Of a stretch of DNA of 64,000 nt, positions 12,877 through 45,480 are shown one piece after another. Below the pieces are notes generated by a model that searched no databases, was not told the origin of the DNA, and saw only the letters and a program-made list of their open reading frames with translations. The stretch comes from Thermoplasmatota archaeon (GTDB lineage: Archaea > Thermoplasmatota > Penumbrarchaeia > Penumbrarchaeales > Penumbrarchaeaceae). How positions within the stretch are numbered: the stretch's first letter is position 1; each line of letters opens with the position of its first letter. The stretch is taken from the NCBI GenBank assembly GCA_046483845.1, contig JAWOCK010000098.1, positions 655 through 64,654 on the forward strand. Reading direction: 5' to 3'. The position numbers and the translations under genes were made by a program.

Positions 12877-12967
12877 ACCGCATTTGAAAGTGGGAACAAT
12901 ACACCTATGGTTGAATGAGAGTTCGACAAAAAGGGTATTTATCCCGTTCTTTTGCTCTATTTGACGA

Positions 12968-12986
12968 AAAATGTTTATATATCATC
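12968..12986 (+). promoter_or_regulatory. Putative archaeal BRE/TATA promoter for the downstream surface-protein gene
   Basis: cgaaaaaTGTTTATATAtc, an A-rich BRE-like stretch followed by a TTTATATA TATA box about 80 nt upstream of the ATG at 13064. Coordinates approximate. Confidence 0.4.
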
Positions 12987-13063
12987 TAATTTCATCTGCA
13001 GTTTGGGGTTACATGGTCAGTATGTATCTGTAATCCGAGCAAATAGCACAAAGAGGTGTTCAA

Positions 13064-15661
13064 ATGATGGGAAGGAAAAAGATGATTGGTAGTATGGCAT
13101 CATCGTTCATTGCGCTGATGCTGACTATGTCTGCTGTATTGCTGCTGTTTCCGATACCGGATGCGGTAGCTCAAACCGGAGAATACGATGATCCGATAAT
13201 TGACCTGAATATGGTAAATAACATGGAGGTAAGACCAGCTCATGCTTTCAATACCTCTTCGCAAAATATAATAATCAGCTGGGAATGGCCGGAGATGTGG
13301 GCAATGAACACTGGACCTTACGAGGTTACCATCGAGATGTATGATAGCGAATCGATGTTGCCTATTCGCTGGCCGATATTCCATTGGCATGTCGAATCCG
13401 GAACCCCCGCACCAGAATCATATGAATGGGAATTGAACAATTCGCTTCAGCCATCGGACAGCTATGTTTTCAACCTTACATCTATGGCCAACAACAGCGA
13501 TACTGGTACTTATTATATGGACTGGGACGAGGCTCCTTTCGAGATAATGGATGGAACACCAATGATAGAGGATATTAGCGCCGATCCACTTGTTGTGGAC
13601 AACAGCGGAACGGGCGTAATCAATATCACATTCTCGTTCAACAGACATTTCGACCATTTGGACAGAGGGAATTTCACAATGGGGCTGTTCAACTACAATA
13701 CGATGGAATGGATAGAATTGGATGTAGATGAGCCTTCGCCGGAAAACATATCCTCCGGTCCTTACTCATCAACAGCCTGGACCCACGTAACTATTCCCTT
13801 TGACACTCCTACCGGAGAATATTATCTCCATCTCAATGCAGTGGATGTATGGGAATACGGGGAAACGTGGAATGAAAGCATATTCAGGGTCATCTGGAGA
13901 GAGGTCCCACCTGTGATGGTTAATGATACCATACATATGAACGAGGATGAATTCGCATTGGTGGACCTCAACGATCATTTCACGGATCCAAACGGACAGG
14001 ATCTGACATATTACATCAATATGTCCGCCGTTGAAAATATAACCATAGTCTGGGTGAATAATCATACCATCAATATCACAGCTCCAATGGATTGGAACGG
14101 CGAACAGGACTTTGGGATCGCCGTTACGGATGGGATCGATCTGCCGGGCCACAATGCGACCTTCACCATGAACGTTATCGTCCATCCCATGCCTGACGAT
14201 CTGCGCCCCACCGAGGATCGGATCGTTATGATCAACGAGGTATTGATGGAAACATACTTCGATCCTTTGGAATTCTTCTACCATCCCGACGGACCCGTGA
14301 ACCTCACTGTATCCATCGGATACGAGGAGGTCGTCGTGAACGATACCTCCAACGAGACCGAGAAACAGCCTATCTGGCACTTCGAGGAAGGGAATATCTC
14401 GGTCGAGATGAACGAGACCCAGCAGAACATGTCCAAGGCCATGCTCCTTCAGGATTTCGAGGAGGGAAGCTGGGAGTTCCCAATAGCAGCCTGGATAGAC
14501 GGCGAATGGGTGATGAACGGGACCGCATTTGTTGAGGTGGACCCCGTCAACGACGTACCCATGCTGGCCGTGGAGGGCATTACCTTCTACTATGATGAGA
14601 TCTTCACTGCCAACCTGGCCGATCTCTTCTACGATCCGGATTCCACCAATCTCAGCTTCATTGTGGACACCACCGCCGAGAACCTGGTGATAGATTACAA
14701 CGAGACCACTCACGATATCGCCATATCCGTTGAGAACAACTGGACCGGAAACTCCGAGTTCGAGGTCAACGTCTCGGACGGCGAGGACTACAACGTGGTC
14801 ATGATACCAGTCGAGGTCCAGATGCACACCTACACCCTCAGTGGTGTAGTGGATTACGAGGATAACGAGACACACGGACTGGAAGGCGTCTTCGTGACCC
14901 TCATGGTCGGTGAGACAGAGGTGCCCGTTGACAACGTCACCGGCGAATATTCCGTGGAACTCGTGGAAGGCGAATACTCCGTATCCATAACCCTCGGAAC
15001 CGATATGATCTATGATGAAGAGGCGGGACAGAGCGGATACATTGCACCCGAACTGGACAATATGACCATGGATATGGATAAGACCCTCGATATTTCCATC
15101 GAGTGGATGGAATATACGGAGAGCGCAGAAGAAGCTACCTGGGAGGACATCGATTTCGATAGTGCTGTCAAGGAGGAAGAGGATGACACCTTGACCTTCG
15201 CAATCCCGGTTAAGAACGAAAGCAGGACCGGCTACGGTGACCTGAAGGTCTATCTCATCATATACGATGATGAAGAAGAGTGGGAGTTCAACTTCACCTG
15301 GATAGAGAGCGACATGGAATATACCCTGGAGATCTCCGAGGATCAGATGGATGATCTTCCCGAGGGGAAGCTCAAATACAAGTACTCCGACAAGGCAGGT
15401 AACGAGACCTCCGAGATGGAATATACCTTCAGGGACGAGAAGCAGGACGCTTCACTGGTGACGGTCATCGTATTGATCGTCCTCATCATACTGGTCCTCA
15501 TCGCCCTGGTCTTCATCATGAGGAAGCCCTCGGAGGAGTTCGACGAGGAAGAAGAAGAGGAAGAAGAAGGGGAGCGCGTCTGCCCGTCCTGCGGTGAGAC
15601 CATCGCCGATGAGGAAGCAGTGGAGTGCCCCTATTGCGGCGAGTCCCTGGAAGAAGAGTGA
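13064..15661 (+). CDS. Large acidic exported surface (glyco)protein with cadherin/Ig-like repeats, C-terminal TM, poly-Glu linker and a cytoplasmic C-terminal zinc ribbon
   Basis: Signal peptide (IGSMASSFIALMLTMSAVLLLFPIP). Very high D/E content with numerous N-x-S/T sequons and repeat-like blocks (…VDLNDHFTDPNGQDLTYY…, …LADLFYDPDSTNLSF…). TM (LVTVIVLIVLIILVLIALVFIM), then EEEEEEEEG and CPSCGETIADEEAVECPYCGE. Confidence 0.7.
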   Translation: MMGRKKMIGSMASSFIALMLTMSAVLLLFPIPDAVAQTGEYDDPIIDLNMVNNMEVRPAHAFNTSSQNIIISWEWPEMWAMNTGPYEVTIEMYDSESMLPIRWPIFHWHVESGTPAPESYEWELNNSLQPSDSYVFNLTSMANNSDTGTYYMDWDEAPFEIMDGTPMIEDISADPLVVDNSGTGVINITFSFNRHFDHLDRGNFTMGLFNYNTMEWIELDVDEPSPENISSGPYSSTAWTHVTIPFDTPTGEYYLHLNAVDVWEYGETWNESIFRVIWREVPPVMVNDTIHMNEDEFALVDLNDHFTDPNGQDLTYYINMSAVENITIVWVNNHTINITAPMDWNGEQDFGIAVTDGIDLPGHNATFTMNVIVHPMPDDLRPTEDRIVMINEVLMETYFDPLEFFYHPDGPVNLTVSIGYEEVVVNDTSNETEKQPIWHFEEGNISVEMNETQQNMSKAMLLQDFEEGSWEFPIAAWIDGEWVMNGTAFVEVDPVNDVPMLAVEGITFYYDEIFTANLADLFYDPDSTNLSFIVDTTAENLVIDYNETTHDIAISVENNWTGNSEFEVNVSDGEDYNVVMIPVEVQMHTYTLSGVVDYEDNETHGLEGVFVTLMVGETEVPVDNVTGEYSVELVEGEYSVSITLGTDMIYDEEAGQSGYIAPELDNMTMDMDKTLDISIEWMEYTESAEEATWEDIDFDSAVKEEEDDTLTFAIPVKNESRTGYGDLKVYLIIYDDEEEWEFNFTWIESDMEYTLEISEDQMDDLPEGKLKYKYSDKAGNETSEMEYTFRDEKQDASLVTVIVLIVLIILVLIALVFIMRKPSEEFDEEEEEEEEGERVCPSCGETIADEEAVECPYCGESLEEE

Positions 15662-15685
15662 TAACTCAGCATCCGGTGGAACAAC

Positions 15686-15720
15686 GGGGGCCCCTTGCGG
15701 GGCTCCCTTTTTTTTATTTT
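15686..15720 (+). terminator. Stem-loop plus oligo-T terminator after the 13064-15661 gene
   Basis: GGGGGCCCCttgcGGGGCTCCC hairpin immediately followed by TTTTTTTTATTTT, about 25 nt after the stop. Coordinates approximate. Confidence 0.5.
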
Positions 15721-15807
15721 GTACATGGGATACACATTAGGTCAAAGTAAACGGATGCACCAGGTATCCCTACCGACCGGTTCAGAATATAGGGCATCTT
15801 CCACTGT

Positions 15808-16701
15808 TCAAAAGAGACGATCTGACATCTCAACAGCTTTAACCAGGTCCAGGGCCCTTTTCGTCTCCTTCACATCATGGACCCGGATCACGGATGCACC
15901 GTTCAGATAAGCCAATACTGCAGCGGCGATGGAACCCTCCAGCCTCTGGTCCACATCCAGGTCCAGAACCTTTCCTATGAAGCTCTTCCTTGAAGCACCC
16001 ACAAGTATGGGGCACCCTATATCGAGAAAGCTCTCAAGGTCCCTCAATATCACCAGATTATCAGCGACCCTCTTTCCGAAACCGATCCCGGGGTCGATCA
16101 TCAATCTCTCCCTCTCCAGGCCGTTCTCCTCCAAGGTCTCAACTCTCTCTGTAAGGAACGAACGGATATCGGAGAGCACATCATCATAGGACGGCGCCAC
16201 CTGCATGTCCTTCGGGGTCCCCTTCATGTGCATGATACAGGCGGATGCCCGGTACTCCGCAACCAGCTCGGCCATGCCTTCACCGCGTAGAGCGTTGACA
16301 TCGTTCACAATGGAGGCTCCCCGGCTCAGAGCTTCCCGGGCAACCTCAGCATGCCTGGTGTCGATGGAGATCGGGATATCGATCCCACCCACCAGCCGCT
16401 CGACAACGGGTACGGTCCTTCTCATTTCCTCTTCCAGCGGGACCGGATCGGCGAAGGGGCGGGTGGATTCCCCACCCACATCGATGATATCGGCACCCTC
16501 GGCCGCCATCTCCATCGCCCGATGGACTGCCTCGTCAGCGGATCCGTAGGACCCTCCGTCGGAAAAGGAGTCCGGGGTATTGTTCAAGACACCCATGATG
16601 ATCGGGGGCTCCAGCTCCTTGAAGTGCTTCTCAACGGGGTGGAAACCTGTTCTTTCAAGAGGAGCCGTCGCTATCTCCATTTTCCTTCTTCTTATCATCA
16701 C
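15808..16701 (-). CDS. folP: Dihydropteroate synthase
   Basis: IMGVLNNTPDSFSDGG, DIIDVGGESTRP and the pterin-binding TIM-barrel blocks. Its 5' end overlaps the 3' end of the upstream topoisomerase gene on the same strand. Confidence 0.9.
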   Translation of the reverse strand: MMIRRRKMEIATAPLERTGFHPVEKHFKELEPPIIMGVLNNTPDSFSDGGSYGSADEAVHRAMEMAAEGADIIDVGGESTRPFADPVPLEEEMRRTVPVVERLVGGIDIPISIDTRHAEVAREALSRGASIVNDVNALRGEGMAELVAEYRASACIMHMKGTPKDMQVAPSYDDVLSDIRSFLTERVETLEENGLERERLMIDPGIGFGKRVADNLVILRDLESFLDIGCPILVGASRKSFIGKVLDLDVDQRLEGSIAAAVLAYLNGASVIRVHDVKETKRALDLVKAVEMSDRLF

Positions 16702-18724
16702 TGCTCCCCCTGTCCTGTTTGGTGGGACACTTGGGATTTATGCAGGTATTTAAGGGTCTGGAGCGCCTTCTGTACATTATTATCATCGGGGACCTGCAAA
16801 CCTCGCAGATCTCATCCGTGAACCCTATCTTCCCTTTCTGAGGAAGAGGATAGCTCTTGGAGCAGCCCGGATACATGGAGCACCTGACATACCGCTTCCC
16901 TCTCTTGGACCTCAACTGGACGAGATCATTATTGCACCTGGGACATTTTCCAATGACATCCTGCACGTCCAGGGACTCCCTGATCTCCTTTCCAATGTCC
17001 TTTTCGTGTTCCTTCAGGCGCTTCATTACCTCGGAGAGCATCTCCCTGGACTCGTTCAGTACCTCCCCTTGGGTCAGCTCCTTCAGCGATATCTTTTCCA
17101 TGTCCTTTTCAAGGCGCGATGTCATCTTTGGCTCGGTTATCATCCTCGCATGTTTCTCCAGCGACGCGATGAGGGCGTCCCCGGACAGGGTCGGCTGCGG
17201 AGGCGACTCCTCTATGTATCTCCTTGAATAGAGCTTCTTTATTGTCTCGTGCCTGGTGGACTTCGTCCCGAGACCAAGGCGCTCCATTTCCTGGATGAGA
17301 CCGCCCTGGGAATACCTCTTGGGAGGCTTGGTCTCCTTACTGAGAAGGTCCATTTCCTCGATGGAGACATCATCCCCTTTCTCCATCGGGGGAAGCTTGT
17401 TCTCCTTGACCTTTGAGAACTCGTAGACTGACCTCCATCCCGCATATAGTGTTATGAGTCCCGAGGCATTGAAGGTCTCTCCCTCCACATCTATCCTGAG
17501 AGATGTCATCTCCACACGGGCGGGGTCGTGAAGGGTCGCAAGGAACCTCCTGACCACAAGATCGTATATCTTGAACCTCTCGGGACCGAGCTTGGCCCTG
17601 GTCGCGTATGAGGTGGGGTAGATTGGGGGATGGTCCGTGGTCTGTTTTTTTCCCCTTGTAGATCTTATCTTATCCTTGGAGAGTATGTATCCGCAGGCCT
17701 CCGTATACGGACCTTTGTTCAGGTCCTGGACCGTCTTTTTCAGGTCCAGGTCCTTGGGATAGACCGTGTTGTCGGTCCTCGGATAGGAAATGAAACCCTT
17801 GGTGTAGAGGTCCTCGGCAACGGACATTATCCTGGAGGCCGACATCCCGAGCGAGTTGGCAGCCCTGATGAACTGAGTGGTATTGAATGGAGTGGGGGGC
17901 TGGTCCTTCCTTTCCCTCTTCTTCACCTCGGTGATGGTCCCGCTATTGGCATCTCGGACCTTCTCAAAGGCCTTGGAGGCTTTTTTCTCATCCTTGAAAT
18001 CGCCACCGGAATGGTACCCCGAGAACTGTTTCCCATCCTTACCGAACAACGCCTCTATCCTCCAATAAGGCACCGGCACAAATTTCCTTATCTCCTTCTC
18101 CTTGTTCACTATCAACGCAAGTGTGGGACTCTGGACCCTTCCCACCGAAAGGAACTCGTGTCCGAGCCGTTCCGCCGCAAGGGAAATGAAACGGGTCAGG
18201 GTAGCTCCCCAGACCAGGTCCACTATCTGTCTTGTCTCTGCAGCCGATGCAAGGGCAACATCTATCCTGCCGGGTTCGGAAAAGGACCTGTAGACCTCCG
18301 CAGGCGTAAGAGATGAGAAATGGGCCCTCAGGGATCTTTCGGCACCGCTATCACCCAGTGCATGGTCCACCGCCTCCTTCCCGATTAACTCCCCCTCCCT
18401 GTCATAGTCGGTTGCCACATAGATCTCTGATGATTCCTTGGCCAGGGACCTCAATACACTTGCTATTCCCTTTTCCGAGACGGTCTTTATGGGTTCTGCC
18501 TCTATCAGGGATGCCGGGTCCACACGGCTCCAGGAATTATATCTCTTGGGAAAATCCATGTTCAATATGTGTCCCCTGAGACCGATGCACTTGGTCTCTT
18601 CTCCCAGCCAGTGAAAATAATAGATGGGGACCCTTCCGGAACTTGTCTTGGTGACCTTTCCGTTGGACAGTATATCGGAGATCCTTTTTGCGGCATTATC
18701 CTTCTCGCATATTATCAATCTCAT
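16655..18724 (-). CDS. topA: DNA topoisomerase type IA (Topo I/III) with C-terminal zinc ribbons
   Basis: Start moved to MRLIICEKDNAAKRI (Toprim). Type IA core is readable along the full length. C-terminal CPRCNNDL…CSMYPGC and CEVC…CINPKC are zinc ribbons. Confidence 0.85.
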   Translation of the reverse strand: MRLIICEKDNAAKRISDILSNGKVTKTSSGRVPIYYFHWLGEETKCIGLRGHILNMDFPKRYNSWSRVDPASLIEAEPIKTVSEKGIASVLRSLAKESSEIYVATDYDREGELIGKEAVDHALGDSGAERSLRAHFSSLTPAEVYRSFSEPGRIDVALASAAETRQIVDLVWGATLTRFISLAAERLGHEFLSVGRVQSPTLALIVNKEKEIRKFVPVPYWRIEALFGKDGKQFSGYHSGGDFKDEKKASKAFEKVRDANSGTITEVKKRERKDQPPTPFNTTQFIRAANSLGMSASRIMSVAEDLYTKGFISYPRTDNTVYPKDLDLKKTVQDLNKGPYTEACGYILSKDKIRSTRGKKQTTDHPPIYPTSYATRAKLGPERFKIYDLVVRRFLATLHDPARVEMTSLRIDVEGETFNASGLITLYAGWRSVYEFSKVKENKLPPMEKGDDVSIEEMDLLSKETKPPKRYSQGGLIQEMERLGLGTKSTRHETIKKLYSRRYIEESPPQPTLSGDALIASLEKHARMITEPKMTSRLEKDMEKISLKELTQGEVLNESREMLSEVMKRLKEHEKDIGKEIRESLDVQDVIGKCPRCNNDLVQLRSKRGKRYVRCSMYPGCSKSYPLPQKGKIGFTDEICEVCRSPMIIMYRRRSRPLNTCINPKCPTKQDRGSSDDKKKENGDSDGSS

Positions 18725-19091
18725 TTGGTCACCGTTCGGGGGCCCCGATTGTAGATATCGATATTTAAGAATGTCTATGGATCCAGTATTATGTGTTATC
18801 AAAAGACATCTGCGACAAGCTCATCCAGTCAACTCCTGACAATCAAGGAGTTACCTTCCTTGATAGCCCATAGAAGAGAGCTTTCCCTGCCTGATCAAGG
18901 AGGCGGTCCATGCTACAAATGGAGTGACAATACATGATACGTCGTTTGAAGGAAGAAGCACTGAGCATAAGTGCCATAAGCAGAAGAACAGGTCATTGCA
19001 GAGATACCGTCAAGTTGCTTTCTCTACCGATCAAGGTCGAATGGTATCTCGAACCGATATCCGGCTCGAATTACCTTCGGAACTGCCGGGA

Positions 19092-19601
19092 TCAGAGCTC
19101 GGGGTAGATATCCATTATCTGGTCTATTCGATGAAGGGTTATCAGCCTATCCGATCGTGGTTTCCTTCTCGGAATCAGCCTCTTTGCCAACGGCCTCTCG
19201 ATGAATATGGCATTTATCCCGGCCTCCAGGGCGGGTATCATGTCATGCCCCAGGGAGTTCCCCACCATGTAGCATCTCCTCCTGTTTGCATTACCACAGA
19301 TCCTGTCGATAACCTCGGGGGTCTTGTTCCTGACGAAGTAAACGTCCTTTTCCCTGAACCATCTCCTGATGCCCAACCTGTCGAGCTTTCTCCATTTCTG
19401 GGAATCATCCAGTACGATGTTCATGGTCAGCATCAGCAGCCGGTCATGTCTGGATGACAGAAAATCCAGCACATCTTCAGCACCAGGGAGCAGTCCGCTG
19501 TAATGAGGGAGGACAGACAAGGGCTGTTTCAAGACCAGTGTATTGTACATGGAGAAGTTGGCAAGGGTATCGTCAAAATCGAATATGAAGGTCTTTCTCA
19601 A
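19092..19601 (-). CDS. HAD-superfamily hydrolase
   Basis: N-terminal FIFDFDDTL (DxD nucleophile motif I) and later HAD motifs (…MVGNSLGHDM…). Apparent TTG start. Directly downstream of purP on the same strand. Confidence 0.55.
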   Translation of the reverse strand: MRKTFIFDFDDTLANFSMYNTLVLKQPLSVLPHYSGLLPGAEDVLDFLSSRHDRLLMLTMNIVLDDSQKWRKLDRLGIRRWFREKDVYFVRNKTPEVIDRICGNANRRRCYMVGNSLGHDMIPALEAGINAIFIERPLAKRLIPRRKPRSDRLITLHRIDQIMDIYPEL

Positions 19602-19611
19602 CGGAACACCA

Positions 19612-20685
19612 TCACGTGATTATTTTGTCCAGTCTGTCGAGGTCACGTCCGAGCTTTATTTCCTGGGCGATCCTCCTTCCCGTTGAAAGCCCGGGCTCGA
19701 TGAAATCGGAATACGGAGAACCTGTTATGAATGGATTTGTCCCCGCAACTATCCTTGCTGAGATCTCGAACACCTTGAACTCCAGCTTATCGGTCACAAC
19801 GGTCTCCAGGCAGAAGGGGCCGATCATTCCGCCGAATATCTCGTAGGAGGTCCTGACAACGTTCTCGGCCATCTCGAAGGCCTTGCTCAGAAGGGATTCC
19901 CTGATCACCAGTGGGAGGTTCCCCGTCACCACGAAGGTCGGGTAGATCCCATGCTCCTTCAGTTCCTCCTGAGAACCAAGCTTGTACATCTCATCGATAT
20001 TGGTCTCATCCCTCCTGTCCATGGATAGTAGCTCGACGATCCCTTCTGCCCCATCCACATTATAGCCTGACTTCCTGAGCGGGGAATGGAAATAGTGGAG
20101 ATAATACCTGGTTCCAAGAATGTACTCCTGGATATTGAACTCCTGTGAATGATCTATTCCCAGTTTGAACTGATTGTAATCCTTGGCAATGAAGAAACCC
20201 CTGCCACCCTTCGCACCCTGATACTTCACCATCACCGGTCTGTCTATCAATTTGGGATCCTTGATCTCCCTGGGCATACTGATCCCGGACCTTTCAAGCC
20301 AGACCCTCTCCATCTTCCTGTCCGATTCCCATTCCAGGACCTTTCGGTTTCCGAACGTGGGTGCGGCCAGATCCTTGAAATTATCAGCACCGAGATACTC
20401 TACGAAGGAACCATGCGGAATAATGATGCCGTTGTCGGCGATTATCTCGTCCAGATGGTCCTTGATCTCGTCATATCTATCAAGTATCAAGAAATCATCT
20501 GGTCTTGCAAGCGGGAAAGCATCGTAGAGCTTGGGGGGACGACCCACCGCGATCCCGAGAGTTTTCAAGCCTTCCACTTTCGCACCGTGAAATATCTGAA
20601 GGCTGGAATGGGAGCATACGGTAACTACCTTCAGCTCATCCTTGTTGTATCCATCCAGAACCTTCTTTACATCGAACGCTTCCAT
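19612..20685 (-). CDS. purP: FAICAR synthetase PurP (formate-dependent, ATP-grasp; archaeal purine step 9)
   Basis: Start moved to MEAFDVKKVLDGYNKDELKVVTVCSHSSL. Strong similarity across the whole length to archaeal PurP (…PHGSFVEYLGADN…FGNRKVLEWESDR…VKYQGAKGGRGFFIA…VTGNLPLVIRESLL…). Confidence 0.9.
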   Translation of the reverse strand: MEAFDVKKVLDGYNKDELKVVTVCSHSSLQIFHGAKVEGLKTLGIAVGRPPKLYDAFPLARPDDFLILDRYDEIKDHLDEIIADNGIIIPHGSFVEYLGADNFKDLAAPTFGNRKVLEWESDRKMERVWLERSGISMPREIKDPKLIDRPVMVKYQGAKGGRGFFIAKDYNQFKLGIDHSQEFNIQEYILGTRYYLHYFHSPLRKSGYNVDGAEGIVELLSMDRRDETNIDEMYKLGSQEELKEHGIYPTFVVTGNLPLVIRESLLSKAFEMAENVVRTSYEIFGGMIGPFCLETVVTDKLEFKVFEISARIVAGTNPFITGSPYSDFIEPGLSTGRRIAQEIKLGRDLDRLDKIIT

Positions 20686-20741
20686 TATCACATAAAGCAA
20701 TCGGTCTCTTATTAGATTTTCGGGGGTTGACCTGATCAGAA

Positions 20742-20765
20742 ATGCAATGCCCCCCTGATAAAGGG
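20742..20765. other. Perfect GC-rich inverted repeat (stem-loop) between the giant-gene stop and the purP start
   Basis: gcccccctGATAaagggggg(c), an 8-9-bp stem with a 4-nt loop. Possible transcript 3'-end or processing structure for the 20780-26497 gene. Coordinates approximate. Confidence 0.3.
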
Positions 20766-20779
20766 GGGCGCTACAGATC

Positions 20780-23700
20780 TCACTCGAAAACGGCACCGCA
20801 GTGCGGACAGATCGGAGCGGATACCGGTATCAAGGCCCCGCACTCGAAACATTCGGCGAGCTCCTCTTCTTCCTCCTCCACCGGAACCGGAGCCGCATCC
20901 TCGCCAGGAGCCTCCTCCTCGATCTCCTCGGAGCCCTCCTCTTCGAGTTCCTCGAGCTCTTCCTCCTCTTCTTCGAACTCTTCATCCTCCCGACCTTCTT
21001 TCTCCTCTTCCTCCGAAGGTCCCTCCTTCTGTAACGGTTCTACATCGGCCTTTACAGGTCTATGGCAGGCCGGGCACTCCGTGGCACCGGTCGGTATCAG
21101 CTCGCCGCACTCACATTCCAACTCATCCGAGAACTCGACACCGCAATGCGGGCATATATCCGCATCGAGCTGGACCAGGCCCCCACAGTTGGAACATTTT
21201 GCCATGTCCTTTGTCTTGTATTTCTTATACACGAAGTAGCCGATAGCACCACCGATGAGAAGCAGGACCAGTATGATGATCAATATCCACACCCATAGAC
21301 GGCTGGGTTCATCCCCTTCCTGGATCTGGACAATGACCGTCGCTTCATTGTTGTCCTTGTCGGATTCATAATAGCTATTCTCATCATCTATCTTCACCCT
21401 GAACAACTTGACATCACCCACAGAGCCTTCTGGTTCGACCCTGAAGGTGACAAGAACTTCTTGATATGGAAGAAGGTCTACGGTCCTCAGATAGCTCTCA
21501 CCTTCAGCAAGCGAGGCGGGTTCATCGAACTCAACCTGGAGATCATGAAAGGAGAAGTTGCCGTTGTTGGTGACCTTGAACGTAACTTCATACTCTTTGT
21601 CCTCTTTCATATCGAACTGCCCGGTCTCTATATTGTACACATCACTTTCCCTCAGAAGTTCGATGGATAGGTCGGGTGCCTCCATCACCTCCAATTGCAG
21701 GGTCAATACATTGTTCCCTTCATCGAACTCCCGTATACTGTTCTCGGGGTCGACCATTATCCTCAACATGTTCATCCCCAGATCCTTCAGGTTCCAGTGG
21801 CCCCTTATCACATCCGTTCCGTTGGTTTCGAGGAAAGGTATCCTGATTATCTTCTCCGTCCAGCTATCGGTATCATTATATGCCTTGAAAAGGACCGTCG
21901 TATTGCTGGCAGCCTTACCACCTATATTGGTCAGGTTCAGCTCCAGGGAGATATTCATACCTAGGTAGGCCATTGGTTCATATTCCAGATCGATGTCGAT
22001 ACCAGGATATCCGGTGGACAACATCAGAGAGCTGTTGGATAGTAAAAGCTCAGGAACATCCTGTATGTCAAATATTTCAACCTGATGGTGAATGCGGTTG
22101 TTGGAGGTGGTCTGCTCCTCCCCTTCCAGCAGGTCCACCTCAACCAGCAATGTCCTGATACCCTTGGGATAATCAGCGATCCAGGGCCTCTCGACGAACA
22201 TGCTGGACCTCCCGGGCAAGGTCCCTGCAAGGTAGGTCATTCCTATTCCCAGCGGGATCGGGTTGGGATCGTTCTCGAACTCCGCATTGAAGAACCTTAT
22301 CCTGAAGGTAGGGGCAGTGGTATCTCCCGTGTTCTCAACGGTTGTGTTTATGGTAAGACGGTTTCCCACTCCCACACTGTTCACCTCGAAATCACCCTGA
22401 TAGAGAGTGATGTTGGTGACCTCCAGGTCGGGCAGTGTCCGGACATACATCTTCCAGAACACCTTGTTGTTCTCTTCATCGCTCTCATCAATGGTATCGA
22501 CCAGGTCCAGGATGACATATATTTCATGATCACCACCGGTTGTGGGGGTCCATGTGACATTTGCCCATCTGAAACCCCCTGCCGGGACAATGTTGATGGA
22601 AACGGAGGGCTGTGTCTCCTTCCAGGAGATTATCTTTCCACCTTCCAGCGGATCTCCGTCGTAGAACCTTATGAAAACGTTCCTTGCAGGAGTTTCGCCG
22701 GAGTTCCTTACAGATGCACTGATGGTGACCTCTTCCCCGATATCAATATTGCGATCCGGTGAGAAATAGAGATCGTTCGTACCCATGTACAGATCAGGTT
22801 TGGAGATCACCCTGATATCGATGGATCGGAGATTGTTATCCTCGTCGGGTTCTTTTATGATATCCCGGGGGTCGGCAACTATGAACATGGTCCTGAACCC
22901 GCTTTCTTCCTCTGCCCTCCGGGATTCCCATGTTATGGAGATGTTCTTTTCCTGACCCGGTAGAAGATCAACATTCACTGTGCTGATGACATTCGTATCA
23001 GAGTCAAGCGCGAACTCCACCTTTGCATTATGAGCCATTGTCTTTCCTATGTTCTTTACAGTGGCCCAGAAGGTGGCGTTCTTGCCTTCTGTTATTACAC
23101 TGGGAGAGACACCAATGTTCGAAGTGAAGGTCAGATCCGGTGGGGTGTCAACCCTTATCGGGAAGATCACCTCGTTGTTCGCCTCGTTCTGTTCCCTTAC
23201 ATCATCATTTAAGTCAATTGCAACGATCAGTTCATGTACACCGGTCGGCGGTCCCGCATACCAGATGAACTCCAGTTCGATATCATCGCCAGGGGATAGC
23301 CCGGGTACCGAACGGTCAAGGTCTATCTTATTTTCCTCGGTCCTTTCCCCGTCATAAACGCTCACCATGAAAGCTCCTGCAGGCAGGTCTCCCGTGTTCT
23401 CTATGGTGAACGTCACCACCGCCGTGGTGTTCACCGTTACCGGGTCCGGTACATTGATGCCGAAGGAGTTCAGGACAAGCCCGATATCCGGAAGCGAAAG
23501 TACCTCTATGGTCCGGACATCGATCGAGTTTATGGGTGACCTGTCGTACTTGGATACCACGGATCCCACCACGTTCAATGTTCCAAGGGCCATGGGCGTC
23601 AAGTTCACGGTCTTCTCCACGGTCTCGCCGGGCGGTATATAATCGAACATCAAAAAGGAGCGGATCTCGCCTTCTCCTGAAGCATCGGTCCATGTCATGT

Positions 23701-26497
23701 TCACATAGAATGGGTTCTCTTCGGGGTCGAGCTCTCCCTCATTACTGACCAGTACATCTATCCGACCCGTGGTATTATAAGCCCATGTTATGGGTGGGAT
23801 ATCGAGCTCTATCGCATAATCGGGACCCAATCCTATGGTGTTGATCTGGTGATCGAGGTTGTCATCCTCATCGGTCTCCTTCACATCCCCGTTCACATCC
23901 GCCATAAGTGAAATATTGACCTCTCCCTCGGTGCAGACCCATGTAGCGTTGACAACATGAGAGGCACCCGGGGCAAGTTCAGGAACAGACCTCTCGACCA
24001 GCGGCTCTCCATCGATCATGATCGAGGCGGAGAACCGGTCCGAGGAGAACTGACCATCGTTCTTTACACTGCCCTTGAGCTCCACCGGGAACCCGTCTAT
24101 CAATGTGCCTTCGGTCCATATCATCTCGGGAACTATGTTGGGTCCGCCTGGCAGGACCACTACAGCATCGATGTTCGCACCTGATAGAACTGCAGCCAAA
24201 GGATCGGACCGGATACCCGAATATGAAGCATTGAACCTGTAATTACCGTGATAGGTCCTTCCGGTGCTCCTTATCTCTTCCTCCAGAAGCGAAAACCTCG
24301 CTGTGCCGTTATCACCAGTTGTATGGGAGGAAACATCGACCTTGAGGGGCCCCAGGACACGCTGAACGTACAATGATGCGCCTGCTATCGGATTCTCGAC
24401 GGAGTCCTGGACCTGGACATTTACCCACCAATATTTCTGTATCACCCCTGTACCGACAGCTTTCAACCATTTGGTCCTTCCATCGGGAAGTGAGCCGGAA
24501 AAGGTAACATTGGTGAGCGAAGCGGAACGGTCCACGTCCAGTACCGTATCGAAGATCGCATCCCGGGATGAGAACGCAACATTGTCCCAGTCCAGATCGC
24601 CGATATTTACTGGCCCCCCTCCGAGCTCGAGGTCGCAATCGGTCGCAAAGATATCCTCGGAGGTGATCCCGGCAGCGTCAACAGAAACATCGACATCAGT
24701 TCCGTAGAGGTTAAAGGACCCGTTCACCATCTCACCCTGTATGTCTATTATCCCGGTGTCCCTTGCTACTATCTGATCGAACTGCAGGCTGCCCCCGTCC
24801 ATTATCATCCGAGGAGCCGAATTTCCAATGAGATAGATGTAAAGGTCCTCTTCACCGTGGGAGGAAAGGGAGACATTGTTCAACTCCATCTTGCCTCCAT
24901 CCTCAATAAGTATGTATGCAGGTGAATCGTCCGTCAGGAAGGATACGGTCGTATCATTGATCGTGAGATGACCCCCGGACCTTATTATGAGATGACCGTC
25001 AAAAGCATAATACGAAGGATAGAACCTCCCATCTACGATAGCTGAGGTCCCGTTCAGGGTGGTGGAACTGCTGAGTGTAAGATCGACATCGGAGCCCGAG
25101 AAGAAAGAAGAGGAGGAGGGGACCATCACATATTCCTTGAATTCGAACGGACCTCCGAGGTCAGAGAAGGCATAGGTACTCTCGGCCGAGCCATCCAGTA
25201 TGGATGCGATAAGATCAACGGCCTCTCCCTGGTCAGGGACATTGGGATAGTTCTTGAACGATGTGTGTGAGGACAGGGTTTCCGTGACCTGGGTTACCTC
25301 GATCTTGAAATCCGGATATGAATCGGAGTTGGGCATGGTCGAGGGTGTTATCACATCGGTGATCACCGGGACGAAGCTCCAACCATCCTCATCCGTGCTG
25401 CTCCAATCAGAGGAGGTCCGGTCCATGAAATCCAATATATCGCCGGTCAGGTAGCTCGAAGTCAACTGTCTGTTTGTGCTGCCTTCGATCCTGTATATGT
25501 CGAGCACCTGGTCCTCCACAGGAATGCCTACCCCGTCGAACACCCGAGATGCTATCCATCTATAATAGATGGCCTTGGAGCCCGTGTTGCGGGTATGGAC
25601 AGCGGGGTAAGTACGATCGGCTGCCGACACATTGAAAGCAGCTCCAACCAGATGGGCCACTGCACCATTGGTTATCTTTAGCATGTTGTGCGAGCCGGTA
25701 GACCTGTTGGATTCGAAATCAATATCCAGGAAGGAATTTATCACAGTAACGTTGGTACCCGAACCATCCAGTGTTATGTTTCCAGCTATCCGACCGTCCC
25801 TTGAGGATGTTGTGAAGGAAAAGGTATCCCTTATCTCCGTATTTACTATCAGTCCCTTGGAACCTGAGAGATAGGTAAAGAGAGGGCCGTCATCATTGTA
25901 GTCCGCATCGTCCGTTGTACTGCCGTCACCGTCGATATCGTATTGAAGGTCATTGGTGTATTCCAGCTTCTTGAATATGGACCCGATGGAATCTATCCTG
26001 CCGCCATTTGTAGCCTGTATCTCACCGGGACCCTCTACCATCGAATTCTCGAAATAAAGCCTGCTTCCTGAGCCATCAACTCCCATATCTATCATGAAGT
26101 AAGGATGAAGCTGATCGGTCTGTGTAGTCACTATGGTATTCTTGAATTGGAGGTATCCACCATCCTGGACCCTGATCGAATAAATATGATCATCACCTCC
26201 ACCTATGACCCCGTCCAATCCGACATCCTGGGAAAGGGTGAGATTGCAGTTGGTAAAGGTGAGTGTGCTTCCAGAGCCGCTGACCGTTATATTGCCGTCC
26301 AAAATATAATCCACCCCGCTGAAGCTTCTTGAAGCGCCTCCTGTCACATTGACCGTACCTAGGGTGCTTGCACCCTCGGCAGGACCTTCCAAGGGGAAGA
26401 TCATGTAAAGACCGGAGAACAACATCATCATAGCTATTGGAGCAGCCATCCATTTTTTTGATCCAAAGAACCGTTTTCCTTCCATACGATCCACCAT
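20780..26497 (-). CDS. Giant (1905-aa) exported surface protein: right-handed beta-helix-like N-region, multiple CARDB-like repeats, C-terminal TM, poly-acidic linker and four cytoplasmic CxxC zinc-ribbon pairs
   Basis: Signal peptide (MAAPIAMMMLFSGLYMIFPLEGPAEG). N-region rich in NxT/S-containing beta-helix-like repeats (…TVSGSGSTLTFTNCNLTLS…). Repeated ~100-aa CARDB-like modules (…VTFTIENTGDLPAGAFMVSVYDG…, …ATFWATVKNIGKTMAHNAKVEF…, …TISASVRNSGETPARNVFIRFYDG…). TM (LWVWILIIILVLLLIGGAIGYFVY), then CSNCGG…CPHCG, CECG…CPACH, E-rich stretch and CFECG…CPHCG. Confidence 0.75.
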   Translation of the reverse strand: MVDRMEGKRFFGSKKWMAAPIAMMMLFSGLYMIFPLEGPAEGASTLGTVNVTGGASRSFSGVDYILDGNITVSGSGSTLTFTNCNLTLSQDVGLDGVIGGGDDHIYSIRVQDGGYLQFKNTIVTTQTDQLHPYFMIDMGVDGSGSRLYFENSMVEGPGEIQATNGGRIDSIGSIFKKLEYTNDLQYDIDGDGSTTDDADYNDDGPLFTYLSGSKGLIVNTEIRDTFSFTTSSRDGRIAGNITLDGSGTNVTVINSFLDIDFESNRSTGSHNMLKITNGAVAHLVGAAFNVSAADRTYPAVHTRNTGSKAIYYRWIASRVFDGVGIPVEDQVLDIYRIEGSTNRQLTSSYLTGDILDFMDRTSSDWSSTDEDGWSFVPVITDVITPSTMPNSDSYPDFKIEVTQVTETLSSHTSFKNYPNVPDQGEAVDLIASILDGSAESTYAFSDLGGPFEFKEYVMVPSSSSFFSGSDVDLTLSSSTTLNGTSAIVDGRFYPSYYAFDGHLIIRSGGHLTINDTTVSFLTDDSPAYILIEDGGKMELNNVSLSSHGEEDLYIYLIGNSAPRMIMDGGSLQFDQIVARDTGIIDIQGEMVNGSFNLYGTDVDVSVDAAGITSEDIFATDCDLELGGGPVNIGDLDWDNVAFSSRDAIFDTVLDVDRSASLTNVTFSGSLPDGRTKWLKAVGTGVIQKYWWVNVQVQDSVENPIAGASLYVQRVLGPLKVDVSSHTTGDNGTARFSLLEEEIRSTGRTYHGNYRFNASYSGIRSDPLAAVLSGANIDAVVVLPGGPNIVPEMIWTEGTLIDGFPVELKGSVKNDGQFSSDRFSASIMIDGEPLVERSVPELAPGASHVVNATWVCTEGEVNISLMADVNGDVKETDEDDNLDHQINTIGLGPDYAIELDIPPITWAYNTTGRIDVLVSNEGELDPEENPFYVNMTWTDASGEGEIRSFLMFDYIPPGETVEKTVNLTPMALGTLNVVGSVVSKYDRSPINSIDVRTIEVLSLPDIGLVLNSFGINVPDPVTVNTTAVVTFTIENTGDLPAGAFMVSVYDGERTEENKIDLDRSVPGLSPGDDIELEFIWYAGPPTGVHELIVAIDLNDDVREQNEANNEVIFPIRVDTPPDLTFTSNIGVSPSVITEGKNATFWATVKNIGKTMAHNAKVEFALDSDTNVISTVNVDLLPGQEKNISITWESRRAEEESGFRTMFIVADPRDIIKEPDEDNNLRSIDIRVISKPDLYMGTNDLYFSPDRNIDIGEEVTISASVRNSGETPARNVFIRFYDGDPLEGGKIISWKETQPSVSINIVPAGGFRWANVTWTPTTGGDHEIYVILDLVDTIDESDEENNKVFWKMYVRTLPDLEVTNITLYQGDFEVNSVGVGNRLTINTTVENTGDTTAPTFRIRFFNAEFENDPNPIPLGIGMTYLAGTLPGRSSMFVERPWIADYPKGIRTLLVEVDLLEGEEQTTSNNRIHHQVEIFDIQDVPELLLSNSSLMLSTGYPGIDIDLEYEPMAYLGMNISLELNLTNIGGKAASNTTVLFKAYNDTDSWTEKIIRIPFLETNGTDVIRGHWNLKDLGMNMLRIMVDPENSIREFDEGNNVLTLQLEVMEAPDLSIELLRESDVYNIETGQFDMKEDKEYEVTFKVTNNGNFSFHDLQVEFDEPASLAEGESYLRTVDLLPYQEVLVTFRVEPEGSVGDVKLFRVKIDDENSYYESDKDNNEATVIVQIQEGDEPSRLWVWILIIILVLLLIGGAIGYFVYKKYKTKDMAKCSNCGGLVQLDADICPHCGVEFSDELECECGELIPTGATECPACHRPVKADVEPLQKEGPSEEEEKEGREDEEFEEEEEELEELEEEGSEEIEEEAPGEDAAPVPVEEEEEELAECFECGALIPVSAPICPHCGAVFE

Positions 26498-26802: not shown

Positions 26803-29800
26803 TTGCGTTGGTACAAGTTAAATGTCCGTCCATATGGAATGACATCCATCGACAGGAACAAATGTATTGTATGCCTGGCACTTATCTTCACATTTCTAAC
26901 AACATCCACATTCCCGATATCAGGTCAAGGAGAGAATTTGGGAACACTTTCCATGCCGGAGAAAGGATCTCTTCACATCCGCATCAACGAAGTATATCCG
27001 GACCCGGATACGGACACCAACGGCGATGGGGATGTGGACCAGCTAGATGAATTCGTTGAGCTCTACAACCCTTCCTCGGTGGATGTCAACATATCAGGTT
27101 GGACAATTTCTGACAACGGAGGATCTTACACCATCGGTTCCGGTTCGGTCTCGGCGGGGGGATTCTTCCTGATATGGAGAGAGGTGTCAGGTCTGAGGTT
27201 GGGCAGCTCGGACCATATAGATCTCACAGCTTCCAACAGCACATCTATGGACATTCTCAGCTGGGTCCAGATAGAAAGGGGAAGGTCCATGCAGAGGTCT
27301 CCTGACGGTGCTGAGAGGACCCGGTCCGTCAAAGACCATACGCCGGGTTGGGAGAACCTTCCACCACCCAGAATTATCATGAACGAGGTGATGGTCGACC
27401 CAGAGGGTGCCAATACGGGGGCCCAGTGGATCGAGCTCTTCAATCCGGGACATTCAGAGGACCTGGAGGGATATTGTATTGATAACGGAGATGGTGCATT
27501 CATGCTGCTTCCCGAGGTCCGGATACCATCCGAAGAGAGGTGCCTTGTGTTCACGGGGGAGCCGCCTCCGGGTGCGGTGGAGATGGGCATCCCGTTCTGT
27601 GTTATCTCTCTTGGCAGGGCTTTCTACGTGAACGGGGATGACCTTTGTCTCACCGATCCTGACGGATACTTACTGGACTATGTGGCCTGGGGTAACTCCA
27701 CACACGTGGGTTATCCTTCTGGCATCTTCCATGGAGAACCATGGGACGGGGGTTACTATGATAATGAGATGGAAAGGTTCGTCCAGGGCGAGAACATGAA
27801 CCCAAAACCGCATGAAGGGAGATCCCTCAAGCGCTCCGAGGACGCCTTTGATACGAATTCCACCTTGGATTGGAAAGTGGACGAGGGAGGGATGGGTAGC
27901 ACCATGGGTTACGATAACTCACTTGACCCATCGGTGCTGGTCTCTCTCCCCTCGGATGTGATATGTGTGGACGGCAGGGTGTGGAGCACCGTGAACTTCA
28001 GCATGACCAATACGGGAAACATGCATGATGAACTGACCATTGATCTGGAGACCACATCCACCAGCTGGATCATCGAGCCGTCCAACATCACTATCCCTGA
28101 CCAGTATCCCGGGAAAGTGGTGAACAGTTCGTTCTCTGTCCTCGGTCCCGAACTTGGCGATAACAGGTCTTGTCTTGTGGAAATGAACATGGTATGGTCC
28201 TCTTTGTCCTTCATCGAAATAAAACAGAGTGTTCAAGTGATGATCCCCGGACCTGACCTAGGGATATCCGACTTACAGGTCGAGGTGAAGAACGGGGACC
28301 TCATGTCGATACCGGAGGGATCCTTTGTGGACATATCCTTCATCGCAGAGGGAGGAGGTGAGATCAACCCTGGCAACACAACGGTCATCGTGGAGATGAG
28401 AAATATTGACACAGGAAGCATCTCCACCATCTTCAACCGGCAATTATCTGATATGCGGACCGGATCAAGAAGGAAAATGGACCTCCGGCTTGATACGATC
28501 GATCTTTCAGGGAACCACACACTTTACTTCTCCATAGATCCGGACAATTTGATAAAAGAGGTGGATGAGAACAATAACCATGAAGTTGTGGACATAAGGA
28601 TCGAGCCCTCCACAGTCCCGCAGGGGCAGGAGAGCTTGAAGATAACAAAGGTCCTGTGGAACTGCACTCAAGAATCGACCTTCGTCGAGATAAGAAACCC
28701 ATGCCCAACCGGGATCCCCATCGATGGAATGAAGCTGTCCGACGGAACCGTTTTCGCCTCCTTCGAGGATGATGTGACGATCGAGCCAGGAGAGAGGATA
28801 TATCTCCTCTGGGGAGCAAAAGCACAGGAACGCGTGCCTGAGCAAGGAAGACATATATGGGTCAGTGGAGGAAGTGCAAGGCAGGAAAGGATGATAGCAG
28901 AGAACGGGGTTCCCGACCCTTTCTCAACGGGCAGGATACAGCTCCTTTCACGGTACAGACATCTCATTGATGATGTCCCGCTGAGACCACCCCTTGACAA
29001 AGGGGAAGAGACAACATGGGGAACCATATACCACAGGAGGGTGGATTCTCGGGGAATGCCGGTGGATACCAATACATCTTCGGACTGGTATGTATACAAG
29101 AATTCGGCCTGGATAGGCGGCATCTTGCCGGCCCCTTCCCCATCAGGAGGACCCGGAGAGCTGATCATACTTCGAACGGACCGGGAAGGGGTCGACGTAT
29201 CCGGTCTTGCACTCTTCCTTGGAAACAGGTGTGCGGTGATACCAAACGGGACCAGAACCGATGAGAACGGCCTTCTGGTCATATCCTCGGACCCTGTGTT
29301 CTTCCGGGATGCACAAGGTAGGGACCCAGACCTTGTAACGGGTCACGATACGGATGGACCGGATGGTGATATCATCCCCGGGTGCCGGGTTCCCTCCTTC
29401 AGCGAGATGCTCCTTCCGAACTCGGGAGGGAACCTGGTCCTTAAGGACCGGTCGAACATCCCGATCGATCGGGTCAGTTGGGGGAGCGTGACCGAACCTC
29501 ACCTGGAAAAAGCGGAGAGAGACGTGCTCTACTGGAAGGACAACGAAAGCAGTGATTGGAGAATACTGGCATACGGGAAGGAAAAGATATACGCATTGGA
29601 CCACGCCAGAGAGGCGGAGAATGTCAGCATTCATTTTTTCGATGACAGACTTGACCTGATGAGATGGATGATGCAAGAAGAACGTCTCACGCTCCACACG
29701 GACCTTCTGGCGGATGATGATATTTATTCTCTTCTTTGTTTGTACATGGACGAGGGAAATGAAGTTGTCATCAACTATCATGTTCCACCCTGGGAGGAAC

Positions 29801-45433: not shown

Positions 45434-45480
45434 GCCAGTAGTGTAGAAGTTCACCATATATGAAATATGGGTATAACGTT

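Follow-up and report, generated by a model that had tools for sequence, protein, structure and literature searches.

Predicted cytoplasmic zinc-ribbon tails on giant surface proteins of a Thermoplasmatota archaeon

Two surface proteins and their tails

Two genes in a 64-kb stretch of Thermoplasmatota DNA (contig JAWOCK010000098.1; "the window" always means this whole stretch of 64,000 nucleotides, GC ~0.52) encode large predicted surface proteins that end, after a single transmembrane (TM) helix, in tails carrying zinc-ribbon motifs. We refer to the 865-amino-acid product as protein 1, to the 1905-amino-acid product as protein 2, and to their orthologues as families 1 and 2. Each protein is 100% identical to an NCBI entry from a metagenome-assembled genome (MAG) labelled Thermoplasmatota archaeon; the two entries are named 'Ig-like domain-containing protein [Thermoplasmatota archaeon]' and 'CARDB domain-containing protein [Thermoplasmatota archaeon]', respectively. 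The genomes nearest to the window carry EX4484-6-type names. The two genes have the following predicted features, for which the confidence of AlphaFold2 models is given as the predicted local distance difference test (pLDDT).

13064 to 15661, forward strand: protein 1, 865 amino acids plus stop, a predicted type-I surface glycoprotein with an Ig/cadherin-like ectodomain (open reading frame, ORF, and translation)
13064 to 13174, forward strand: signal-peptide-like N-terminus of protein 1, residues 1-37 (ending PDAVAQ), with a basic n-region and hydrophobic residues 11-29
15452 to 15520, forward strand: TM helix SLVTVIVLIVLIILVLIALVFIM of protein 1, residues 797-819 (hydropathy 3.87; AlphaFold2 helix)
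15521 to 15580, forward strand: juxtamembrane RKPSEEF and poly-Glu of protein 1, residues 820-839 (AlphaFold2 pLDDT ~51, which fits disorder)
15581 to 15640, forward strand: zinc ribbon CPSCGETIADEEAVECPYCG of protein 1, residues 840-859, followed by ESLEEE and the stop (Pfam, alignment and AlphaFold2)
20780 to 26497, reverse strand: protein 2, 1905 amino acids plus stop, a predicted type-I surface protein (ORF, translation and Pfam)
26369 to 26497, reverse strand: signal-like N-terminal segment of protein 2, residues 1-43, with basic KRFFGSKK and then a moderately hydrophobic stretch
21227 to 21298, reverse strand: TM helix LWVWILIIILVLLLIGGAIGYFVY of protein 2, residues 1734-1757 (hydropathy 3.02; AlphaFold2 helix with pLDDT >90)
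21197 to 21226, reverse strand: basic stop-transfer segment KKYKTKDMAK of protein 2, residues 1758-1767 (Lys/Arg count)
21065 to 21196, reverse strand: double zinc ribbon of protein 2, with ribbon 1 (CSNCG..CPHCG) at residues 1768-1786 and ribbon 2 (CECG..CPAC) at residues 1795-1811
20852 to 21064, reverse strand: acidic, sequence-variable linker of protein 2, residues 1812-1882, 71 amino acids (AlphaFold2 pLDDT <50)
20783 to 20851, reverse strand: terminal zinc ribbon CFECGALIPVSAPICPHCG of protein 2 with C-terminal AVFE, residues 1883-1905 (AlphaFold2 pLDDT ~85)

The ectodomain of protein 1 matches the Pfam models Big_9 and Cadherin_4/5 at residues 282-359. That of protein 2 begins with a domain of ~700 amino acids that has no Pfam match and continues with CARDB in six stretches (E = 5e-82); its signal segment is weaker than that of protein 1. 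A preliminary description of this DNA had quoted the C-terminus of the 865-residue protein, and protein 1 indeed ends exactly in ...IMRKPSEEFDEEEEEEEEGERVCPSCGETIADEEAVECPYCGESLEEE, its tail running in the order RKPSEEFDEEEEEEEEGERV-CPSCGETIADEEAVECPYCG-ESLEEE. For the 1905-residue protein the same description listed two ribbons, an acidic linker and a terminal CFECG..CPHCG, all of which are present, although the second ribbon starts with CxC and not with CxxC. This shortened first knuckle (ECECG or ECDCG, at 21065-21115 in the window) occurs in all EX4484-6 orthologues of protein 2, and wider relatives have CxxCG at this position. It is the exception in form to the two-knuckle CxxC...CxxC arrangement, with all cysteines conserved, that holds in both families.

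The tail of protein 2 scores above the Pfam cut-offs for Zn_ribbon_3 (35.0 bits; cut-off 27), Zn_Ribbon_1 (30.6 bits; cut-off 25) and DZR (30.6 bits; cut-off 27.3). With its single ribbon, protein 1 falls outside DZR; it lies just below the curated cut-off of 27 for Zn_ribbon_3 (24.8 bits, E = 1.4e-5) and below that of 25 for Zn_Ribbon_1 (20.1 bits, E = 5e-4). Its orthologue P0008 carries a precomputed PF13248 annotation, and is called a zinc ribbon domain-containing protein at NCBI. AlphaFold2 models the ribbon of protein 1 as a hairpin (pLDDT 72-84) and the double ribbon of protein 2 with pLDDT 85-93, with no fixed packing between ribbons (predicted template modelling score, pTM, 0.38). All four ribbon cysteines are invariant in the alignment of family 1 orthologues, as are the eight cysteines of the double ribbon across 22 family 2 sequences. 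We infer that the ribbons coordinate zinc.

The side of the membrane on which the tails lie was judged heuristically, from hydropathy, Lys/Arg flanks, glycosylation sequons and cysteines. On these heuristics both proteins have the character of type-I (N-out, C-in) single-pass proteins. All N-x-S/T sequons (31 in protein 1 and 32 in protein 2) precede the TM helix, and neither tail contains one. Cysteines lie almost only on the other side of the helix: protein 1 has none in 796 ectodomain residues and four in 43 tail residues, and protein 2 has three in 1731 and 12 in 149. In protein 2 the 15 residues before the helix are free of Lys and Arg and the 15 after it contain five, whereas the flanks of the protein 1 helix are ambiguous as to orientation. 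The signal segments, the single TM helices, the basic residues after the helix in protein 2 and the placement of sequons and cysteines all point the same way, and it is a strong inference that the ribbons of both proteins are cytoplasmic, as had been proposed.

Ribbon motifs of this kind are scarce in the window. A CxxC ribbon motif is found in just five reading frames of at least 80 codons, and the three such frames other than proteins 1 and 2 are not surface-protein tails (one is a 684-residue ORF at 43403-45457 on the reverse strand). Among random tails of window composition, the pattern CxxC-x(5-25)-CxxC arises in 1e-5 of those 46 residues long and in 5.5e-5 of those of 150 residues. Five giant type-I surface proteins are encoded in the window, and the recurrent architecture that the preliminary description saw there applies to proteins 1 and 2, but not to the other three, which have no ribbon tail.

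Conservation of the tails and the families that carry them

Family 1 has nine database relatives. The seven that are complete and 39-67% identical to protein 1 all retain the TM helix, RKPSEE(E)F, the acidic run and the ribbon; of the remaining two, one is truncated and the other, P0010 (30% identity), has a different hydrophobic end. P0010, a protein of 1004 amino acids and the most distant relative, carries ~230 hydrophobic, low-complexity residues and an RRRK..EFEE end in place of the TM helix and ribbon tail. A further eight orthologues, on metagenome contigs, are 37-46% identical to protein 1 and retain the tail without exception. The segment from the TM helix through RKPSEE (15452-15541) is almost invariant (TVIVLIVLIILVLIALVFIMRKPSEE), though the orthologues are only ~40% identical overall, and K28, P29, S30, E31 and F33 of the tail alignment (KPSE..F of RKPSEEF) do not vary within the family.

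Family 2 is similarly faithful to its tail. Three ribbons and an acidic linker are present in 30 of 30 orthologues (43-67% identity, 1870-1908 amino acids), and likewise in the family 2 genes of 23 species-level genomes. The terminal-ribbon segment is invariant or nearly so across the 30 orthologues; it is hydrophobic, and in none of them does it contain Lys or Arg. The linker has an Asp+Glu fraction of ~0.5 in protein 2.

Conservation is distributed very unevenly along these proteins. Mean pairwise column identity in family 1 is 0.40 for the ectodomain, 0.81 for the TM helix and 0.78 for the tail. In family 2 it is 0.49 for the ectodomain, 0.30 for the TM helix, 0.71 for the double ribbon, 0.27 for the linker and 0.93 for the terminal ribbon. 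Third codon positions have diverged under the most conserved segments: for the family 2 terminal ribbon, amino acid identity is 0.93 as compared with 0.49 at third positions of conserved residues, and for the family 1 TM helix the corresponding values are 0.88 and 0.49. Because synonymous sites have diverged, the invariance of these two segments reflects purifying selection on the protein, and recent horizontal transfer or gene conversion is ruled out as its cause. The preliminary description had supposed that the tails are not random, and had proposed checking orthologues of both proteins. The tail module is kept in every complete close orthologue (15 for protein 1 and 30 for protein 2), under stronger purifying selection than the ectodomains.

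Invariance extends to residues that do not bind zinc, more than fold stability alone would demand, and this speaks for a specific interface. A simple anchor is not usually as invariant as the TM helix of family 1, which suggests that the helix makes a specific contact inside the membrane.

These data bear on the most trivial account of the tails, that the motifs are chance occurrences or mis-called frames, or that the ribbons are extracellular and have no selected role. The sub-threshold Pfam scores of protein 1 and the ambiguous flanks of its helix could be taken in favour of that account, but the low frequency of the motif in random tails, the placement of sequons and cysteines on opposite sides of the helix, and the retention of the tails in all complete orthologues despite diverged synonymous sites leave it with almost no probability. 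It is already effectively refuted.

The ectodomain of protein 1 varies at the strain level. A near-identical genome, GCA_964459425.1, matches the window with 99.95% DNA identity over 14285-21661 and 100% over 12941-12995, but has no detectable DNA similarity (compare L041, 1-1375) over 12996-14284, a stretch that takes in the start and first ~407 codons of protein 1. The two proteins are 10-54% identical over residues 1-400 and 88-100% identical over residues 401-865. The distal head of the ectodomain thus looks to have been replaced as a cassette at the strain level, as would be expected for a surface exposed to phage or ligands.

A third family with a ribbon at its end occupies the same syntenic position as protein 1, after DHPS, in other EX4484-6 genomes. 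Its members have an FG-GAP-type ectodomain and 1550-1606 amino acids in all, and after a conserved juxtamembrane segment and a spacer rich in Pro they terminate in the ribbon CDLCGSS..CPLCG. The following genes belong to family 3.

L019, 15218 to 20038, reverse strand: family 3 gene
L020, 12617 to 17371, reverse strand: family 3 gene
L030, 20297 to 24949, reverse strand: family 3 gene

The likeness of family 3 to protein 1 is confined to the ribbon, and the tails of protein 1, protein 2 and family 3 have in common only a generic CxxCG..CPxCG ribbon. The tail of protein 1, in which RKPSEEF, poly-Glu and a single ribbon follow an invariant TM helix, is restricted to family 1 orthologues, and the carriers of tails like that of protein 2 belong to approximately one ectodomain superfamily (described below). 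A single mobile tail cassette placed on unrelated ectodomains is therefore ruled out, and with it the idea of a shared, independent C-terminal module, since tails 1 and 2 are each family-specific. The recurrence itself is real: at least three ectodomain families of the EX4484-6 lineage end in a predicted cytoplasmic ribbon at or near the C-terminus. It reflects repeated use of a generic ribbon of the PF13240/PF13248 type and not the shuffling of one cassette.

The tail of protein 2 has a much wider distribution. A profile (A1) of the TM helix and double ribbon, 86 positions long, was searched against 1.84 billion cluster representatives and matched 3197 of them at E <= 1e-3 and 423 at E <= 1e-10. 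Proteins of the same plan thus number in the thousands in the kind of profile search that the preliminary description had proposed. When the tail profile was used in a word-indexed database search, five short fragments were all that came back, without the family itself, and that result is uninformative. About 130 of the best 150 matches to A1 are proteins of 230-5842 amino acids in which the last TM helix is followed by a tail of 140-310 amino acids, with a double ribbon directly after the helix and another ribbon downstream. We define a superfamily by a double ribbon within ~10 amino acids of the last TM helix and a further ribbon 60-230 amino acids downstream, at the C-terminus of a protein with a large N-terminal part. 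Protein 2 follows this rule and protein 1, with its single ribbon, does not.

Among 103 superfamily tails analysed, 90 have exactly three ribbons, and in 41 the last ribbon lies within six residues of the end. Two main subtypes can be distinguished. The subtype to which the window protein belongs has a double ribbon, a disordered spacer that is acidic or Pro/Ala-rich, and a terminal ribbon ending in ...CGAEFE or ...CGAVFE. In the second subtype a conserved helical domain (..QY..Y...F...AK..LG....F.EWW..QPS..) lies between the double ribbon and the next ribbon, after which comes an extension that is basic or Pro-rich. The spacer is thus often Pro/Ala-rich or a helical domain, and its mean Asp+Glu fraction across the superfamily is just 0.20. 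Poly-Glu, which had been described as part of the common plan, is on this evidence a lineage trait and was rejected as a defining element.

Superfamily members with names (20 sampled clusters and 29 genome loci) come from Thermoplasmatota, namely Thermoplasmata, Methanomassiliicoccales and EX4484-6; the exceptions are one weak single-ribbon match in Clostridiales and one MAG labelled Methanobacteriota. When their ectodomains were grouped by blastp with single linkage, 102 of 103 fell into one cluster; demanding coverage of 50% or more lowered the count to 101 of 103. DZR and Zn_ribbon_3 are matched by all 35 members sampled with Pfam, CARDB by 21 of the 35 and MG2 by 10. At least 55 of the 103 share the N-terminal domain of protein 2 that has no Pfam match, and a few have swapped heads, such as a beta-propeller/FG-GAP head. 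From the single ectodomain cluster and the common tail plan it follows that protein 2 is a member of a phylum-wide superfamily of which the tail is the hallmark.

Names given to the relatives at NCBI are 'zinc ribbon', 'double zinc ribbon' or 'CARDB domain-containing protein', and JGI auto-annotation adds RPABC4/Spt4; the RPABC4/Spt4/L40e names represent generic ribbon matches only. In P0138 (1016 amino acids) a double-ribbon tail appears fused to S-adenosylhomocysteine hydrolase. This fusion is probably an artefact of gene calling or a frameshift, because the hydrolase is a separate, adjacent gene in L031 (13505-14737).

Genomic surroundings

The three giant type-I proteins of the window that have no ribbon tail are as follows.

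4741 to 7803: giant type-I protein with a Pro/Gln-rich tail
26803 to 32928: giant type-I protein with LTD and PLD domains
34176 to 39533: giant type-I protein with S8 protease and Ig domains

The first has the Pro/Gln-rich tail that the preliminary description assigned to it, of 141 amino acids. The second (forward strand, 2041 amino acids) contains three lamin-tail domains, a CARDB stretch and two PLD-like phosphodiesterase domains, and has a short, basic tail. A role as a surface nuclease or as an enzyme like a phospholipase is probable, and its divergent pairing with the gene for protein 2 is kept in L030, from a distant EX4484-6 relative. Between the first giant and protein 1, a 912-residue multi-pass protein (7800-10538, reverse strand) has a signal-like start, a long N-terminal part, a redoxin/thioredoxin-like domain and a DsbD/CcdA-type TM domain. 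This composition suggests that an extracytoplasmic thiol-redox system is encoded beside the surface proteins.

Gene order around the tailed proteins is maintained between the window and its EX4484-6 relatives, and runs PCNA, LTD-PLD giant, family 2, PurP, hydrolase, TopA, DHPS and a giant of family 1 or 3. In this arrangement the LTD-PLD giant is divergent from family 2 and the family 1/3 giant is convergent. A machine encoded beside the giants was sought with Pfam scans of the neighbouring ORFs in the window and rejected, as these gave housekeeping functions only, including QueA, TGT, DHPS, TopA, PurP, PCNA, a PAN-like AAA protein and SHMT.

Co-location with a membrane complex, which the preliminary description had suggested looking for, is nevertheless seen beside certain distant relatives. 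In three Methanomassiliicoccales-like loci (L025, 2166-14779; L042, 7860-20407; L046, 1334-17074) the superfamily gene lies inside a conserved, type-IV-pilus-like cluster, to which GyrA also belongs. A KaiC-like ATPase and a coiled-coil zinc-ribbon protein are encoded upstream of the giant, and PilB3/T2SSE, T2SSF, T2SSF and T2SSE genes are convergent with it. Besides its coiled coil and zinc ribbon, the coiled-coil neighbour has a disordered region and an end that is polybasic. It terminates in ..SIRKIIKRK, and a similar basic sequence, ..RRIVRRP..KKV, is found in the tails of the giants, possibly as a shared short linear motif.

Such a cluster raises the possibility that the double-ribbon tail docks on, or is handled by, a PilB3/VirB11-type ATPase, a TadC-like platform or a KaiC-like ATPase, with the giant as the surface (S-layer-like or adhesin) component. 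The cluster is conserved even though the giants of L025 and L042 are just 25-38% identical, and archaeal type-IV pilus (T4P) loci are known to encode S-layer-like proteins with a single C-terminal TM helix, KaiC ATPases and (double-)zinc-ribbon proteins (Makarova et al. 2016, PMC4858521). However, GyrA is also syntenic in the three loci, so the signal may partly be gene-order conservation within one order. These loci carry the other tail subtype, with the helical domain and basic extension, and the cluster is missing from the window, its EX4484-6 relatives (where no VirB11/PilB-type ATPase or TadC/T2SSF gene neighbours the locus) and six other superfamily loci. We therefore regard a pilus-type machine as an unlikely explanation for the window protein; the cluster is a lead for one subtype, and not evidence for the window lineage.

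A different neighbourhood was observed at L045 (19701-20947), where two adjacent small GTPase genes of the Arf/Ras/Roc type, a DUF835 gene and a CARDB giant lie directly downstream of P0063, a superfamily member of 2935 amino acids with a tail of the window type.

A possible docking role and its relation to known systems

The charge of the tails is informative about what they might contact. Many zinc ribbons bind nucleic acids, and the preliminary description had included this among possible functions; the ribbons might then attach the chromosome or transcripts to the membrane. The zinc ribbon of TopA is encoded nearby in the window, but this is coincidental context only. The tails have net charges of -20 (protein 1) and -39 (protein 2), about half of the linker residues are acidic, and a terminal ribbon that lacks Lys and Arg in 30 orthologues fits a protein interface rather than one with nucleic acids or lipid headgroups. 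Nucleic-acid tethering is therefore disfavoured, and we consider it highly improbable.

In our preferred reading, to which we give about an even chance, proteins 1 and 2 are permanently anchored type-I surface glycoproteins whose cytoplasmic ribbons are kept by selection as docking sites for other proteins. In protein 2, the double ribbon, which follows the basic stop-transfer segment, would be held against the inner face of the membrane. The acidic, disordered leash of ~70 amino acids would keep the distal ribbon off the anionic membrane, and this uncharged, rather hydrophobic ribbon, together with AVFE, would serve as a hook that captures a conserved cytoplasmic partner, for example an assembly ATPase, or a filament of the cytoskeleton or divisome. 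Protein 1 would be a minimal version, in which one ribbon comes after RKPSEEF and poly-Glu and the nearly invariant TM helix may make an extra contact inside the membrane. In this way envelope proteins might be placed or fixed with respect to the cell interior, or might report to it.

A bolder proposal is that the tail couples the major CARDB-type envelope glycoproteins throughout the Thermoplasmatota to an intracellular filament or assembly ATPase (FtsZ/CetZ, after the example of CdpC, or a PilB3/KaiC machine) in an integrin-like manner, and that the single-ribbon tails of families 1 and 3 are minimal versions that engage the same partner. Such a link from outside to inside would organise the envelope, the shape of the cell or its division in archaea that may be without a rigid wall. 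We hold this to be doubtful, with odds well below even.

The ribbons, together with the TM helix in family 1, might alternatively make lateral contacts between copies of the proteins, perhaps through interchain zinc, and so build an S-layer-like array or stabilise the anchor. Family 2 is syntenic and of constant length (1870-1908 amino acids in 30 lineages), as for a core envelope component, the family 1 helix is highly conserved (identity 0.81-0.88) over diverged synonymous sites, and the terminal ribbon is hydrophobic and uncharged. However, the family 2 helix is not conserved, a ribbon on a ~70-residue disordered leash is odd for a rigid lattice contact, and AlphaFold2 packs the ribbons in no fixed way. 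Self-association by these means seems to us rather improbable.

Transmembrane signalling would provide yet another role, in which the ribbons hold a transcription or regulatory factor, intramembrane proteolysis frees the acidic tail after an outside signal, or the cysteines act as a redox switch. A sensor-sized ectodomain, one TM helix and a cytoplasmic zinc module resemble anti-sigma factors and bacterial ribbon-TM proteins of envelope stress. Zinc ribbons are also common contact modules of RNA polymerase and TFB, a resemblance mirrored by the RPABC4/Spt4 auto-annotation, although those names reflect generic ribbon matches. ZAS anti-sigma factors have a cytoplasmic zinc module with the motif HxxxCxxC. 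This motif is absent from proteins 1 and 2, whose ribbons are C-terminal and whose orientation is opposite to that of anti-sigma factors, and neither the window nor EX4484-6 synteny links a regulator or site-2 protease gene to them. Signalling is quite improbable on this evidence, less so only than the nucleic-acid and chance accounts.

Several points also weigh against docking. Neither the 64-kb window nor EX4484-6 synteny points to a machine; the pilus-like neighbourhood is missing from seven other lineages sampled, and at the six superfamily loci that lack it the neighbours are unrelated housekeeping genes. PDB searches, by Foldseek with the tail model and by sequence profile, gave only generic mini-ribbons (bL32, NZF/RanBP2, ArnA and DUF35), none significant. 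Zinc binding and topology are predictions only, and strong conservation is also compatible with self-association or with a regulatory (redox or proteolytic) role.

If docking is correct, envelope proteins would be organised from inside, in cells that may have no rigid wall, as cultured Thermoplasma are wall-less. How the cell interior organises archaeal envelope proteins is little known, especially in possibly wall-less lineages. The tails provide a small, sharply defined and strongly conserved cytoplasmic handle, such as the 26-residue LAECFECGALIPVSAPICPHCGAVFE, on thousands of Thermoplasmatota protein clusters, and with this handle the question of what in the cytoplasm holds the envelope proteins can be tested directly. 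The tail plan also serves as an annotation rule for a superfamily whose present labels go no further than 'CARDB domain-containing' or 'zinc ribbon domain-containing'. Should the role be merely structural, the result is a modest improvement in annotation.

In the published literature we found no account of zinc-ribbon C-terminal tails on archaeal surface proteins, of the superfamily or of its function, and a paper on EX4484-6 genomics does not discuss the envelope. The ribbon domains themselves are known. PF13240 (Zn_Ribbon_1), PF13248 (Zn_ribbon_3) and PF12773 (DZR) match the ribbons, but these are generic models that have no assigned function and do not cover the ordered tail or its link to CARDB. 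The tail architecture is thus undescribed, while ribbons next to TM segments are in themselves common.

In PGF-CTERM/archaeosortase glycoproteins a glycosylated ectodomain stands between an N-terminal signal and a hydrophobic anchor at the C-terminus; their terminal TM segment, which follows the PGF motif and precedes a few basic residues, is removed. Proteins 1 and 2 differ in having no PGF motif before the helix, and in the folded tails of 46 and 149 amino acids that come after it. An NCBIfam scan of the proteins gave nothing above cut-off, and no PGF-CTERM match at E <= 0.01.

The S-layer-like and adhesin proteins of T4P loci (PMC4858521) resemble the proteins described here in being large and secreted, with one C-terminal TM helix, and T4P/KaiC genes neighbour three of our relatives. 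The zinc-ribbon proteins reported from those loci (arCOG07264 and arCOG06883) are, by contrast, separate proteins and not surface-protein tails, and Thermoplasmatota are not mentioned there.

For the tail of protein 2, the closest functional precedent is CdpC, the membrane anchor of the FtsZ1 ring in Haloferax volcanii, in which a membrane-associated ribbon is joined by a 243-residue disordered linker to a C4 ribbon at the C-terminus, and this C4 ribbon shows zinc-dependent binding of FtsZ1 (bioRxiv 10.64898/2026.07.16.738847). Remote multi-ribbon relatives of CdpC were reported in all Thermoplasmatota classes (bioRxiv 10.64898/2026.07.16.738847). The resemblance, judged from the published description, is one of layout only: in both, a long disordered linker separates a ribbon near the membrane from a C4 ribbon at the C-terminus. 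Unlike protein 2, CdpC is soluble or peripheral, has an amphipathic helix, lacks a TM helix and ectodomain, and has an N-terminal ribbon of the C3H type.

Bacterial ZAS anti-sigma factors, and ribbon-TM proteins such as YdjG or PspC fusions, likewise place a cytoplasmic zinc module beside one TM helix with a larger domain outside, and some use the same Pfam ribbons. In these, however, the ribbon is N-terminal and the topology is type II, and they have neither the triple-ribbon plan nor a giant Ig-like ectodomain. A cytoplasmic zinc ribbon beside a single TM helix is thus the known kind to which these tails belong, and here it takes the form of a conserved triple-ribbon tail at the C-terminus of surface proteins in archaea.

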